Shown here: positions 1,800 through 10,198 of the stretch, in pieces
How positions within the stretch are numbered: the first letter of the stretch is position 1
Layout of the letters: every line of letters begins with the position of its first letter
UHGV virus genome: UHGV-0172319
Length of the DNA: 20,424 nucleotides
Direction: 5' to 3' (one strand)
Source: a virus
Translations under genes and position numbers: made by a program
The notes under the pieces: model-generated
Databases searched by the model: none
Told to the model about the DNA's origin: nothing
Seen by the model: the letters and a program-made list of their open reading frames with translations, nothing else

Positions 1800-2194
1800 A
1801 GATCAGTAAGCGTAACTCTGGTAGGCTCACTATGCTTTTGCGCTAAAGCAGTGGGCCCTGGTTAGCTTGTGACCTGAAAGCATGAGCTGATGGCTGGCCG
1901 GGTGCTACAACACCCACCAGCCGCCCATCTTCACAAAAAGAAAGCCCCGCTTAAACGAGGCATCAAAATCGTTTTAAGTCCGTGGCGTAGAAACCACTCT
2001 TAACACAGTAATACATAAAATGCGGACCGCGTGAGGAAAACAATGGTTTTTTTTAATCCATTGAGTAAAATCAATGCCACTTTGCACACATGTTATCCAC
2101 ACAGTGTGCTTGCAAATTCTCATTTATTTTTTTGAATTTTGTAAATGCTCTAATTTATGGGCTTTTTTTACCGATAGCATCTAAACACTTGTGT

Positions 2195-2218
2195 GGTAAG
2201 TTCTGAATGAACGTTACC
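2195..2218. promoter_or_regulatory. Imperfect inverted repeat (GGTAAGTTC / GAACGTTACC) 35-60 bp upstream of the protease start; candidate operator or 5'-UTR hairpin
   Basis: Read directly from sequence; arms share the GGTAA/TTACC core with the cI operator half-site; lies in a strongly AT-rich divergent promoter region (about 1960-2250). Confidence 0.35.
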
Positions 2219-2253
2219 CCTTGGTTTAAAACTCTTAACATAAGGACATCCGA

Positions 2254-3249
2254 ATGTTTGAGCAGCGGAAAGCTTTGTATGCGCAACTGGAACAAGCACG
2301 CAGTTCAAAAGTATTATGCTATGTAACTGGTGACAGACCAAACCAAGAAGCTCAAATCAGCGCTGATGTATTTGATCTTTTCGTTAACCATTTAGATGTG
2401 ATCGGTGACGTTCAAAAAATTAGTCTTGTGCTCTATACGCGAGGCGGCGACACTTTGACTGCATGGAGCCTTGTAAACCTGCTTCGTCAGTTTTGTAAAG
2501 AACTCGAAATCATAATCCCATCCAAATGTCATAGCTCTGGGACGATCATGTGTCTTGGCGCTAACAATTTGGTTATGACAAAGCAGGCAACCTTAGGTCC
2601 AATCGATCCGAGTGTGAATACACCACTCAACCCTTCGGCCATTATCAATGGGCAGCAACTTCAACTTCCAGTCAGTGTTGAAGAAATCAATGGTTATCTT
2701 GAAGTAGTTAAGCATGATTTGAGTATCAAGGATGATGCCTCACTTGCGCAGATCCTCCTTGCATTAAGTGAAAAGGTTCACCCACTAGTGCTTGGTAAAG
2801 TCTATCGAGCTAAATCGCAGATTCAAATGCTCGCAAGAAAACTACTTTCTCACCAACTCACTGATAGTGAAAGCATTGAGAAAATTGTAAGTTTCCTTTG
2901 TAGTGATTCTGGTAGCCATGACTACACTATAAACAGGATTGAGGCAGTAAACGATTTAGGTCTTACTGTGGAAAAACCAGATGAGCAACTTTACGGCCTG
3001 ATCAAAGAAATTTATGAAGATTTCAAAACTGAGATGCATCTGGGTGAACCTTTTGACCCAAATGCTATCTTAGGAACAGTTAACCAAGCATCGTATGTAT
3101 CTGTTAGAAGCATTTTAGAGGCTCCAGATACATTTTCATATCAATTCCGCACTGAGGGCATGTTACAGCGTTTGCAAACTCCAGGTGTCCCAAGTCAGTT
3201 CGGAATAAATCATAACCTTATCTCAGAAGGATGGGCTCAACATGGATAA
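2254..3249 (+). CDS. SDH-family / ClpP-crotonase-fold serine protease-like protein (moron gene)
   Basis: 331 aa; N-terminal half has the ClpP/SppA-like pattern (LYTRGGDTLTAWSLVNLL..PSKCHSSGTIMCLGANNLVM..LGPIDP); good RBS (AAGGA, 8 nt spacing); clearly lower GC than flanking phage genes; opposite strand to the late operon. Confidence 0.65.
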   Translation: MFEQRKALYAQLEQARSSKVLCYVTGDRPNQEAQISADVFDLFVNHLDVIGDVQKISLVLYTRGGDTLTAWSLVNLLRQFCKELEIIIPSKCHSSGTIMCLGANNLVMTKQATLGPIDPSVNTPLNPSAIINGQQLQLPVSVEEINGYLEVVKHDLSIKDDASLAQILLALSEKVHPLVLGKVYRAKSQIQMLARKLLSHQLTDSESIEKIVSFLCSDSGSHDYTINRIEAVNDLGLTVEKPDEQLYGLIKEIYEDFKTEMHLGEPFDPNAILGTVNQASYVSVRSILEAPDTFSYQFRTEGMLQRLQTPGVPSQFGINHNLISEGWAQHG

Positions 3250-3424
3250 CAAATCATCTACAGGAAACTTTGTCGTCTATACGAATAGGCATACAAATAC
3301 AGCAGCGCCTAAGACAGCAAGCACCCCATCTACTGCTCAAAAAGTTAGTAATAATGGTGTGAATGGCTACAGTAACTTTTTAAGTTGCACAACAGGTTCG
3401 GCCATAAAAAACAGTTTCTAAAAG

Positions 3425-3455
3425 CAACGGCTCATAATGAGCCGTTGTTGTTTCT
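3425..3455. terminator. Bidirectional rho-independent terminator between convergent protease gene and Q
   Basis: Perfect palindrome CAACGGCTCAT..ATGAGCCGTTG (3425-3447) followed by TTGTTTCT on + strand and preceded by an A-tract (T-tract on - strand). Confidence 0.55.
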
Positions 3456-3834
3456 ACTCACATTCTAAACGTATTTCGAGCATGCTAAGGCAACCATCGA
3501 TAAATCCCTCTGCCATCTGGATCTCGATGCGTATCAATTTTTCATCCTTCTTGCGCATTCTCGCTATCTTACGCTTAGAAATGCCATACAAATAATGCGC
3601 TACCAGTAGTGAATGCTCATAAGGCTTTCGCTTCTGAAGTCGGGCTAAGCAACCTTCTATAATAAGGGCATCATCATCGGTGCATGAAAGACGAGTTTTG
3701 CTTGTCTGAGGAAGAATCCCTTTAAAGCCAGCCGCAATAGGTGAGTAATCGACTCCTGAACTATCACTCGCTGCCCAACCACCCCAGCGCTCTAATACCA
3801 TCTGAATATCCCGCATGTAATCTCCACTGTTCAT
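3454..3834 (-). CDS. Late-gene antiterminator Q (QuuD / phage-82-type Q family)
   Basis: Core sequence MRDIQMVLERWGGWAA...IAAGFKG...LVAHYLYG...IQMAEGFIDGCLSMLEIRLE matches the lambdoid Q/QuuD family. Start at 3834 overlaps the upstream stop (ATGA); alternative start at 3816 gives MRDIQ. The longer track ORF to 3954 would overlap the upstream gene and is unlikely. Confidence 0.75.
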   Translation of the reverse strand: MNSGDYMRDIQMVLERWGGWAASDSSGVDYSPIAAGFKGILPQTSKTRLSCTDDDALIIEGCLARLQKRKPYEHSLLVAHYLYGISKRKIARMRKKDEKLIRIEIQMAEGFIDGCLSMLEIRLECE

Positions 3835-4820
3835 GCAAGCACGCCAATAGCAAGCGCGCGATCGATAAAACGAAATATCAACTCCAGCTGCGAGCCGTAT
3901 TTCTCTTCGAATACCACGGTATCCGCATGTAACTCGTCGTGATGCTTTCTGCACAAAGGCAACACCCAGAGGTCATGCGCTTTTGTCCCCATGCCGCCCT
4001 GACCGTGACCTATCAGGTGGTGCGGATCATCAGCCTGCTTACCACAGCAGGCGCACGGCTGGGCCTTCACCCATCGCGTGTATTTCTCATTTTCCCAGCG
4101 TCGGCGCTTCGGGCGTAGCATGAAGCTTTCCGGCGATTCCGGATCAATCCTGAGTGTCAGTACCTTTTTCGCCTTCTCCTGCACAATGCTGGTGGCCGGT
4201 AACGAGGGCACAATATCGCTTTCTCGCATGATGGATTTCGGCTCTTCATCCGGTAGTCGCAGCGCTTTATGTGCAACGCTTTCCGGTATCACGTCACCCA
4301 GATCATTTCTGACCATCCACCAGCACAACTCCGGGAGAGTCAGAACATGCGACTCAGAGAAACCTAAATCTGTTCGAATGACTGACAAAATCCAGGATAC
4401 CAGGTTTTTGCTGGCTATACCTGCAAGCTGTTCCGTGTATTGACCAGCGAGAGTGTGATCGCAGTGCCAGCACAGCCGGATGCTACCAGGCTGATGGTGC
4501 ATTATCGTGAAATTCTTGTCGTGCCATGTTGAATGGGGCCACTGGCATTCGAACTTTTTGTTTAACCAGCCATCAAGCGAAGACAATCCACCAGCGCGCT
4601 GAATAACGCGCTGATTTTCAAATATTCCACTCATTACCGGATCGTCTGCCAGTGGTTGAACCGCTGCCGGCACATGACCAGTATTGTAAGAGGCCATGCT
4701 TTCCGGTTCTGGCTCAAGTAAGACCCGACCGCGCATGAATAGCGGCATCAGTTCAGCACCGGGACGGAAAAGCACAACCCCCATTCGGTGGGCTATTTCA
4801 GGAGTTAACAACGCTCTCAC
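3831..4820 (-). CDS. DUF968-family protein (YdfU-like nin-region protein) with C-terminal Cys/His-rich motif
   Basis: 329 aa; C-terminal CACCGKQADDPHHLIGHGQGGMGTKAHDLWVLPLCRKHHDELH is typical of prophage DUF968 proteins; conserved position upstream of Q. Confidence 0.7.
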   Translation of the reverse strand: MRALLTPEIAHRMGVVLFRPGAELMPLFMRGRVLLEPEPESMASYNTGHVPAAVQPLADDPVMSGIFENQRVIQRAGGLSSLDGWLNKKFECQWPHSTWHDKNFTIMHHQPGSIRLCWHCDHTLAGQYTEQLAGIASKNLVSWILSVIRTDLGFSESHVLTLPELCWWMVRNDLGDVIPESVAHKALRLPDEEPKSIMRESDIVPSLPATSIVQEKAKKVLTLRIDPESPESFMLRPKRRRWENEKYTRWVKAQPCACCGKQADDPHHLIGHGQGGMGTKAHDLWVLPLCRKHHDELHADTVVFEEKYGSQLELIFRFIDRALAIGVLA

Positions 4821-9443: not shown

Positions 9444-9538
9444 GTTCCCTCCTAGTTAACCTACGCCCTAAAGGTAACAAAAGGTACATTAAATAGCAAA
9501 CAACAGTTACAGGAAAACAATGTAACATTCGTTACATG
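9444..9538. promoter_or_regulatory. OR-like immunity operator/promoter region between divergent cro and cI
   Basis: Contains operator copy GGTAACAAAAGGTACATT (9473-9490) and a related inverted element TGTAACATTCGTTACATG (9521-9538) overlapping the cI start; several GTAAC/GTTAC hexamers. Confidence 0.65.
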
Positions 9539-10198
9539 AAAACAGAGATGAAAGACCGAATCAGATCAAGGCGTGTACAGCTCGATATAACGCAGCAGAC
9601 CCTAGCTAAAAAGCTGGGGGTTAGCCGTGTATCTGTAACAAAATGGGAAAGCGGAACCACAAAACCAGATGGAGAGAACCTTCATCAGTTAGCGCTGGCT
9701 CTGCAAACCACCCCAGAATGGATTCTTTATGGTCAGGGCGATGATGAAAAAGTTGATGACACAAAATTAGTGCCATACTTAAAAACACCAACCGCCGTCC
9801 CAATTATTTCTGCTGTTCAGGCAGGCCTGTGGACTGATACCTATGCATGCTCAAGGCTGACTGATGTGATTTCCTGGACTCAAACAACTGCTAATGTTTC
9901 TGACGAAGTTTTTGGTCTTGTCGTTCGCGGCGAATCGATGACAAACCCACATGGACTCCCTTCAATACCTGAAGGCTCTATCGTAATCGTTGAACCACAC
10001 TATGGTCAGCTAGATGACCTTTATGGGAAGATCGTAGTTGCAGTTCTGGATGGCTCTGCTGAAGCTACGGTGAAAAAGTTAGTATGGGATAGCCCTTATG
10101 CCTATCTCATGCCACTAAATCCAGTGTTTAAACCCATTCAGATTGATGGAAATTGCAGAATCGTTGGAAAGGTTGTTCAGATTACGCAAAACCTATAG
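9536..10198 (+). CDS. cI: CI-type prophage repressor (N-terminal HTH plus C-terminal S24 LexA-like autopeptidase domain)
   Basis: 220 aa; HTH (LDITQQTLAKKLGVSRVSVTKWESG); C-terminal VVRGESM (Ser nucleophile) and TVKKL (Lys) as in lambda CI/LexA; divergent from cro. Confidence 0.9.
   Translation: MKTEMKDRIRSRRVQLDITQQTLAKKLGVSRVSVTKWESGTTKPDGENLHQLALALQTTPEWILYGQGDDEKVDDTKLVPYLKTPTAVPIISAVQAGLWTDTYACSRLTDVISWTQTTANVSDEVFGLVVRGESMTNPHGLPSIPEGSIVIVEPHYGQLDDLYGKIVVAVLDGSAEATVKKLVWDSPYAYLMPLNPVFKPIQIDGNCRIVGKVVQITQNL

Follow-up and report, generated by a model that had tools for sequence, protein, structure and literature searches.

The gene at positions 2254–3249 of a stretch of the virus genome UHGV-0172319 raises the question of what a serine protease is doing between the antiterminator gene Q and the lysis genes of a lambdoid prophage, antisense to both, and whether it acts there by itself. 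A preliminary description, made from the letters of the stretch (20,424 nucleotides, the whole of which is referred to below as the window), had proposed a single-gene system. The 331-aa open reading frame (ORF) was found on the + strand as described, and Pfam places its product in the SDH family of ClpP-fold serine proteases, but the gene does not stand alone: a small partner gene of 59 aa (3242–3421, + strand), overlapping it and coupled to it, is conserved throughout the family, and the two-gene unit is very probably real. The function of the unit is less certain, and the reading favoured here, a toxin-antitoxin (TA)-like cassette of a protease and its neutraliser, probably defensive, is as a whole held with about even confidence.

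When analysing the end of the protease gene, the ATG of the partner at 3242 was found to overlap the protease stop codon (ATGGATAA), and the partner ORF stops at 3421, two bases short of a terminator hairpin. A Shine-Dalgarno sequence, GAAGGATGG (3226–3234, + strand), is formed by the codons for E325, G326 and W327 of the protease, 10 nt 5' of the partner ATG, and is the predicted signal coupling translation of the protease to that of the partner. Of these residues G326 and W327 are invariant in the homologue alignment, and at the nucleotide level the pattern GA(A/G)GGNTGG is found 5' of the partner ATG in nearly all viral and prophage loci. The cassette thereby shows the conserved, coupled two-gene operon looked for in type II TA systems, with overlapping start and stop and with the Shine-Dalgarno sequence inside the upstream gene.

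The viral and prophage set consisted of 78 loci with relatives of 44–98% identity which, together with loci found earlier, gave 61 distinct loci. All 61 contain an ORF of 54–113 aa whose start, in a frame other than that of the protease, is only a few bases from the protease stop and usually 3–13 nt inside the protease gene, while the control, a search for an ORF of 55–120 aa at the same position relative to other long-ORF stops in the same loci, found one in 258 of 937 cases (Fisher p = 8.5e-33). An independent scan, in which one genome per species was used (222 species matched, 80 loci kept and 78 evaluated), revealed a partner-type ORF in 66 of the 78 genomes, from many phyla and including archaea, and several of the remaining loci gained a partner by profile search. 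In an Omnitrophota locus (L148, 2886–4142) a 414-aa ORF overlaps the protease stop in place of the small partner, and its N-terminus resembles, by our own reading, a nuclease of the SbcD/Mre11 type.

The partner peptides are highly divergent (mean column identity 14%), and the motifs they have in common are an aromatic pair near residues 10–16 and an S/T-S-A patch, together with [DN]-[ST]-L-x3-[IM]-[KR]-N-x2-[IV]-[IV] in most lineages. A partner-family profile run against the 12,574 ORFs of at least 40 aa from every locus matched at partner positions only, and a hold-out profile made from 59 non-enteric genomes matched the window partner ORF (E = 0.0033), with every non-training match located at a partner position. 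The partner is under purifying selection, with a ratio of nonsynonymous to synonymous substitution rates (dN/dS) of 0.05–0.26 for unsaturated pairs, and its dN is 3–6 times that of the protease. In the window the partner consists of 47% S/T/N/Q, its sequence shows no hydrophobic segment or signal peptide, and it is probably disordered. It gave no PADLOC-DB match at E ≤ 0.01. For the E. coli copies RefSeq lists the protease alone under a query spanning both genes, and in a few submitter-annotated, non-RefSeq records the partner is called a hypothetical protein.

Regarding the protease, residues 54–127 match Pfam PF01972 (SDH_protease) with 54 bits against a gathering threshold of 31.3 (E = 1.6e-14), the match being limited to profile positions 92–165 of 286, and RefSeq labels the E. 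coli copy 'SDH family Clp fold serine proteinase'. The NCBIfam equivalog NF047768 (Clp_like_SDH) gave 69.2 bits, which is below its cut-off of 250 and suggests that the window protease represents a divergent subfamily; in PHROGs it is assigned to phrog_11747, function unknown. An AlphaFold2 model built from 36 homologues (predicted local distance difference test, pLDDT, 85.8; predicted template modelling score, pTM, 0.82) showed a predicted fold of the ClpP/SppA/NfeD type (ClpP/crotonase), with the nucleophilic Ser at the N-terminus of the conserved helix and with a helical region added to it and a three-stranded beta domain at the C-terminus. No hydrophobic segment was found in the protease sequence, and its location is therefore probably cytoplasmic.

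The model and the Pfam score above threshold bear out the ClpP-type fold given in the preliminary description, and its candidate nucleophile in PSKCHSSGT has stood as well. Ser94, the first Ser of H-S-S-G-T within this motif, is invariant among the 36 homologues, is aligned with the catalytic Ser97 of 1510-N and, in a weak match, with the catalytic Ser of ClpP, and is identified as the nucleophile. Further invariant residues among the same homologues are K110 (MTKQATLGPIDPS), D118, H176 and the block S-G-S-H222-D223-Y-T-I, so that S94, D118, H176 and H222 occur in the order Ser-Asp-His, with K110 and D223 invariant too. Ser-Asp-His is the catalytic order given in the description of the PF01972 family, and these invariant residues are candidates for it. 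By a motif comparison of our own, not a tool alignment, VMTK110Q corresponds to VMIHQ of ClpP and H222-D223-Y-T...E-A...G-L to R-D-R-F...E-A...G-L, and the profile comparison with E. coli ClpP ended at the catalytic Ser, before the His and Asp positions. The chemistry is possibly Ser-Lys(-Asp) or Ser-His-Asp; of the catalytic Ser/Lys dyad that had been proposed, the Ser is retained and Lys110 is one of several invariant candidates, which makes the dyad a possibility.

A possible role of the partner was suggested by five Firmicutes genomes (L125, L136, L139, L151 and L173), in which the ORF at the partner position is ~200 aa long and overlaps the protease 3' end. These ORFs consist of a partner-like N-terminus (aromatic residues, T-S-A and a hydrophobic strand) followed by a SocA_Panacea domain, matched in Pfam with E = 1.7e-18 to 5.3e-23 in the four of the five on which Pfam was run, and the partner profile (E = 0.002) also recovers the fused ORF of L125 (7013–7630). 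The toxins found together with Panacea antitoxins are unrelated and number in the dozens (PMC8832971), and in the multidomain antitoxins the neutralising is done by attached linear elements, possibly intrinsically disordered, with Panacea as the proposed sensor (PMC10440598). Taken together, the Panacea-fused relatives and the published pattern suggest that the 59-aa protein of the window would be the neutralising element alone and the protease a toxin-like effector, which by analogy the partner may neutralise.

In the model proposed, the first gene would encode a cytoplasmic ClpP-fold SDH protease and the second a translationally coupled, S/T-rich small protein that binds the protease and blocks it, either as a linear inhibitor or as a pseudosubstrate. 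If the partner were lost or displaced, for example when host expression is shut off by an infecting phage or by some phage trigger, the freed protease would cleave host or phage proteins and the infection would be aborted, to the benefit of the lysogen. Any specific trigger or substrate is much less certain than this outline. On a wider scale the family might, rather more tentatively than the cassette itself, be seen as a cross-domain TA/abortive-infection family with a ClpP-fold protease as toxin, a coupled disordered antitoxin of ~60 aa and an optional Panacea sensor fusion.

The properties of the small protein are also those to be expected if it were the protease's own substrate or pro-peptide, from which an active peptide would be released or whose turnover would serve as a timer. 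It looks disordered and has short conserved linear motifs of the kind typical of protease recognition sites, tight translational coupling sets the stoichiometry of the two products, and by analogy the NfeD protease 1510-N cleaves a stomatin of its own operon. The Panacea fusions at the partner position, however, suggest an antitoxin role, neither a signal peptide nor a hydrophobic segment points to a secreted or membrane peptide, and sequence hardly distinguishes an inhibitor that mimics a substrate from a true one; a substrate or pro-peptide is considered unlikely.

A standalone protease of this fold had been regarded as unusual, a view that does not agree with the 4073 database homologues and the 222 species-level genomes that carry the protease. 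The family occurs in Proteobacteria, Bacteroidota, Firmicutes, Spirochaetes, Chloroflexi, other phyla and three archaeal genera, and the identity of ~50% over the full length across those phyla and archaea suggests much horizontal transfer. In the archaeal loci (L146, L147 and L170, from Methanofastidiosum, Methanobrevibacter and Methanothrix) the protease is ~50% identical to the enterobacterial one and is accompanied by a recognisable small partner, which points to recent transfer of the cassette between domains. An identical protein is recorded in Citrobacter, with near-identical copies in Enterobacter and Escherichia, and the host of the prophage is probably a Citrobacter. Among 5,426 complete E. 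coli genomes 47 harbour the cassette, adjacent to Q, and DNA searches with five family variants showed no SDH-like gene of at least 65% nucleotide identity in E. coli beyond those 47. Two 43.7-kb E. coli 'plasmids' (NZ_CP081704.1 and NZ_CP081794.1) contain a Q-SDH region that is also present in the chromosomes of the same strains, and probably represent a prophage, excised or circularised, that was assembled as if it were a replicon of its own.

The cassette is located directly 3' of, and co-oriented with, CI/S24-type repressors in three loci (L016, L082 and L092), which is the position of rexAB in lambda, and in a fourth (L081) it follows what we read as a helix-turn-helix (HTH) repressor-like protein. 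Homologues are also found between P2-type gpA and portal, an interval published as a hotspot of anti-phage systems (PMC9122126), and other sites are a prophage end beside tail fibre genes, positions adjoining integrases and the interval between the terminase large subunit (TerL) gene and portal. In Nitrosomonas (L014/L015; 5792–6370 and 6725–9903) the cassette lies antisense between Mu-like protease (gpI) and Mu F-like genes of a degraded Mu-type prophage, with a HigB/HigA pair beside it. In whole genomes the neighbours fall into 124 Pfam families, none of which recurs as a third gene, and include OLD-TOPRIM/AAA_15, AbiEii-like AAA_21, restriction, methylase and integrase genes.

This distribution bears on whether the cassette could be a purely selfish TA addiction module that stabilises prophages or mobile elements and has no part in phage defence. 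Such a module would have the same overlapping two-gene architecture and Panacea-fused partners, would spread horizontally as widely as the family has done, across phyla and into archaea, and would be found in many insertions beside housekeeping genes, all of which is the case here. Against it stands the repeated use of defence or exclusion slots (after CI, between P2 gpA and portal, and the Q-proximal slot shared with a TIR-TM gene), and TA and defence roles are not mutually exclusive, TA systems being increasingly found in phage defence and as close kin of antiphage systems (PMC10440598). Addiction without defence is judged quite unlikely, and a TA-like cassette with a probable part in defence is preferred.

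The interval between TerL and portal, in which the cassette of loci L085–L088 lies co-oriented with both genes (e.g. L086, 4249–8438), brings up a function in phage morphogenesis, as a prohead maturation or scaffold protease, or another function in the lytic cycle. Residues 43–114 weakly resemble ClpP-type head-maturation profiles (PHROGs 1684, 2976 and 133; E ~1e-3) and NCBIfam NF045542 gave 28.4 bits, but the cut-off of the latter is 120. Moreover, the window gene is antisense and situated between Q and the late leader, its relatives are elsewhere found behind repressor genes, at the ends of prophages, in the P2 hotspot and in the chromosomes of both archaea and bacteria, and a tblastn search of 50,697 deposited phage genomes returned no homologue. 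The protease is in addition always accompanied by the small partner, and L086 has, by our own motif reading, a separate HK97-like prohead protease ORF 3' of portal. A role in morphogenesis or elsewhere in the lytic cycle is accordingly highly improbable, and the identity of a head-maturation protease was rejected on profile scores below cut-off and on genomic context. The post-portal ORF of L086 is 151 aa long and cut short beside a transposase-like ORF, and a PDB sequence search with it was uninformative.

In the window the flanking genes on the − strand form a lambdoid early-right/late junction, with Dam, a LexA-like protein, RusA, KilA-N and DUF968/HNH followed by Q. The gene for antiterminator Q (3454–3816, − strand, 120 aa; Pfam PF06530, E = 2.9e-53) is convergent with the cassette. 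On the other side, on the late strand, the gene of an N6/N4 DNA methylase (747–1799, − strand; Pfam PF01555, E = 1e-43) separates the cassette from the holin gene (298–612, − strand; phrog_1350, E = 4e-33). A mechanical ORF call for Q (3454–3954, − strand) starts at a GTG, encodes 166 aa and shares bases with the DUF968 gene, and the 120-aa version with its start at 3816 is favoured by public gene calls and by the Pfam match (residues 47–164). The protease ORF has the strand of the repressor gene, a cI-like gene at 9536–10198 (+ strand; a Peptidase_S24/HTH repressor is matched in related loci), and is opposite to Q.

Several features given in the preliminary description were recovered in this layout, namely the strand opposite to Q and the lysis genes, the good ribosome-binding site (AAGGA at 2242–2246 on the + strand, read from the sequence, 7 nt 5' of the ATG) and the low GC, which is 0.415 in the protease gene (0.349 at third codon positions) versus 0.501 in the rest of the window, and 0.40 for the interval 1962–3453 versus 0.50 elsewhere. 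Its statement that the gene sits alone between Q and the lysis cassette holds for the position and not for 'alone', as the 59-aa partner overlaps the stop codon and the methylase gene precedes the holin gene.

The interval was further compared in relatives with the same type of Q, and all of those examined were found to have antisense cargo there, of differing kinds. In mEp390 the interval is occupied by the TIR-TM protein mEp390_047, a defence candidate (L018, 3663–4481; PADLOC PDLC03016, E = 1.6e-57), in SfIV by gp49-gp48 (L017, 2933–4355), an uncharacterised pair, in cdtI by orf54 (DUF6731)-orf53 (L097, 1556–2944), with the same pair in vB_EcoS-733R5, and in PhiR40_1 by a 148-aa antisense ORF, while SfV has no antisense gene in the interval and a much longer Q (250 aa). 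In L098 and L003 the antisense cargo ahead of the late leader is situated at 2642–4030 and 3624–4070, respectively. For the cassette of DUF6731 and a 147-aa protein, the 'portal' label in 733R5 is probably wrong; this cassette, likewise uncharacterised, and the SfIV pair could be further defence candidates. The protease cassette is, as had been suggested for the gene, horizontally acquired low-GC cargo of a lambdoid prophage, situated in a slot of variable content that separates Q from the late genes. Among the marks of a moron, a terminator, a deviant composition and variable cargo in the slot were found, and no promoter was detected by consensus scan.

The terminator, a bidirectional intrinsic-terminator hairpin with a 12-bp stem, is located at 3423–3449 between the partner stop (3421) and the Q stop (3454). 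It folds on both strands, as the preliminary description had it, with −18.7 kcal/mol (z = −6.0) on the + strand and −16.6 kcal/mol (z = −4.9) on the − strand, then a U-run, and in the window, EC11, mEp390, SfIV and PhiR40_1 the Q stop is followed at a distance of a few bases by a GC-rich hairpin and its U-run. At the other end of the cargo an alignment of the window, EC11, mEp390 and SfIV revealed a conserved core of ~60 bp, ACGCGGTCCGCA...GTTAAGAGTGGTT...CGCCAC (1975–2035, − strand), which a pattern search extended to PhiR40_1, L040, cdtI and vB_EcoS-733R5. In all the relatives examined the core is situated on the side of the cargo away from Q, whatever the cargo or the downstream late genes; its positions include 6021–6061 in L001, 3552–3592 in L018, 4485–4525 in L017, 3518–3530 in L003 and 2830–2842 in L040. 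Just 3' of it a second, tR'-like hairpin with a U-run resembles an intrinsic terminator (1944–1961, − strand; −11.2 kcal/mol, z = −3.2), and the relatives have a hairpin at the equivalent position. Rfam gave no match in the intergenic regions, the core included, and the core may be a leader element of the late operon or a recombination junction.

Between the core and the protease gene there is an intergenic region that is AT-rich by composition (2036–2253; the wider interval 1962–2253 has a GC of 0.35), which presumably holds the promoter of the cassette and possibly also a divergent late promoter; a sigma-70-like match, TTTACA-18-GAGAAT, is found on the − strand at 2145–2116. Since the 3' end of the cargo abuts the Q hairpin there is no room for a late promoter at that end, and the simplest reading of the layout puts the late promoter and leader on the left side of the cassette, where, within 2036–2253, the late promoter might diverge from that of the cassette, an arrangement that would insulate the cassette. 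Consensus scans gave only weak late-promoter candidates, 50–140 nt 5' of the core in all relatives, and such weak matches are uninformative because AT-rich sequence yields many by chance. That Q-antiterminated late transcripts would read the cassette antisense, as had been proposed, appears doubtful with the terminator abutting Q and the late-leader-like core beyond the cargo, although the model for phi80, in which late transcription crosses the antisense tai gene (PMC11364771), is a precedent to the contrary.

The same evidence concerns the original idea of a single-gene defence or lysogenic-conversion effector that is silenced in lytic growth by antisense late transcription. The protease is indeed intact and conserved and its orientation is opposite to Q, and taiEcA of phi80 is an antisense defence gene near Q that is reduced upon Q expression (PMC11364771). 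Nevertheless, practically all loci have the partner ORF, on which purifying selection acts, and since a terminator abuts Q and all relatives have the core and second terminator on the other side of the cargo, the late promoter probably lies distal to the cassette. An effector of one gene under antisense control is therefore improbable, and the two-gene, TA-like cassette is retained.

A number of observations weigh against the TA-like reading. No model of PADLOC-DB v2.0.0 matches the protease at E ≤ 1, and the 59-aa ORF of the window has no Pfam or PHROG match and so no known family; it is in particular without the PF13274 SocA_Panacea domain, and the Panacea fusion is seen in only ~5 of the 78 genomes. 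Ser94 has as many as five candidate catalytic partners (K110, D118, H176, H222 and D223), and the small protein could equally be a substrate, a pro-peptide or an adaptor. Many neighbours of the cassette are housekeeping genes, a setting that suits a selfish TA module as well as a defence system, and the probable role in defence is deduced from genomic position. On the + strand 5' of the protease no sigma-70 match of at least 9/12 was found (the best is 7/12), so that the promoter of its own, with which the gene had been credited, was not recovered, and expression in the lysogen is assumed from the orientation of the genes.

If the reading is true, a ClpP-fold protease is added to the known toxins and effectors of TA and abortive-infection systems and would, within the papers searched, be a toxin class not yet described for type II-like systems, available as a ready-made protease/inhibitor pair in a compact cassette of 1.2 kb, with substrates that would determine the way in which cell or phage is shut down. 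What annotation presents as a single 'serine protease' gene in hundreds of species, archaeal ones among them, is in fact a unit of two genes, the ~60-aa partner of which is missed by most annotation pipelines. The interval from this type of Q to the late leader is a hotspot of cargo, with a TIR-TM candidate and several unknown cassettes, and a practical place to search for defence genes.

When compared with known systems, the protease shares the ClpP/crotonase fold and the position of the nucleophile with ClpP, SppA and the ClpP-type prohead proteases, at an identity of ~12%, and differs from these in its extra helical region and C-terminal three-stranded beta domain and in having neither an ATPase partner nor a morphogenesis context. 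The NfeD protease 1510-N (PDB 2deo and 3bpp) uses a Ser-Lys dyad with the Lys 41 residues after the Ser, a position at which the window protease has no Lys; the latter is also without membrane anchor or OB domain, and its partner is a tiny disordered-looking protein and not a stomatin. A two-gene anti-phage system borne by phage-inducible chromosomal islands (PICIs), FS_HP_SDH_sah in DefenseFinder, reportedly described by Fillol-Salom and co-workers in Cell in 2022, is said to include one protein with an SDH_sah domain (PF01972, now named SDH_protease), in which case a part in defence has already been demonstrated for a protease of the SDH type. The window protease matches PF01972 too and is likewise carried on mobile elements, so that the cassette may possibly be this system or a relative of it; should the system stem from E. 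coli, the relationship would be distant at best, as no further SDH-like gene was seen in the E. coli genomes. Literature searches on the SDH protease family and on ClpP-like anti-phage proteases returned nothing relevant, and the SDH family is not mentioned in the DefensePredictor and Rousset supplements.

In its position the cassette resembles the 'noncontiguous operon' of phi80 TaiEcA/AtiEcA (He et al. 2024, PMC11364771), a prophage defence gene expressed in the lysogen and located antisense downstream of Q, with the difference that the late transcript is said to cross the Tai gene whereas the layout of the window suggests an insulated cassette. Tai itself is unrelated and not a protease, and was rejected as an identity for the cassette. 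In its organisation the cassette resembles PanAT and other type II TA systems in which a linear element neutralises the toxin (Kurata 2022, PMC8832971; Ernits 2023, PMC10440598), and which are likewise bicistronic, overlapping and carried on mobile elements. Term searches of these two papers gave no toxin class with a ClpP-fold protease. The window partner differs from the PanAT antitoxins in being the 59-aa element only, without Panacea or a DNA-binding domain, while in five relatives the partner-like segment is followed by Panacea just as in the published multidomain antitoxins, and by this analogy the architecture of the cassette is that of a toxin-first type II TA pair, with the protease as its predicted toxin.

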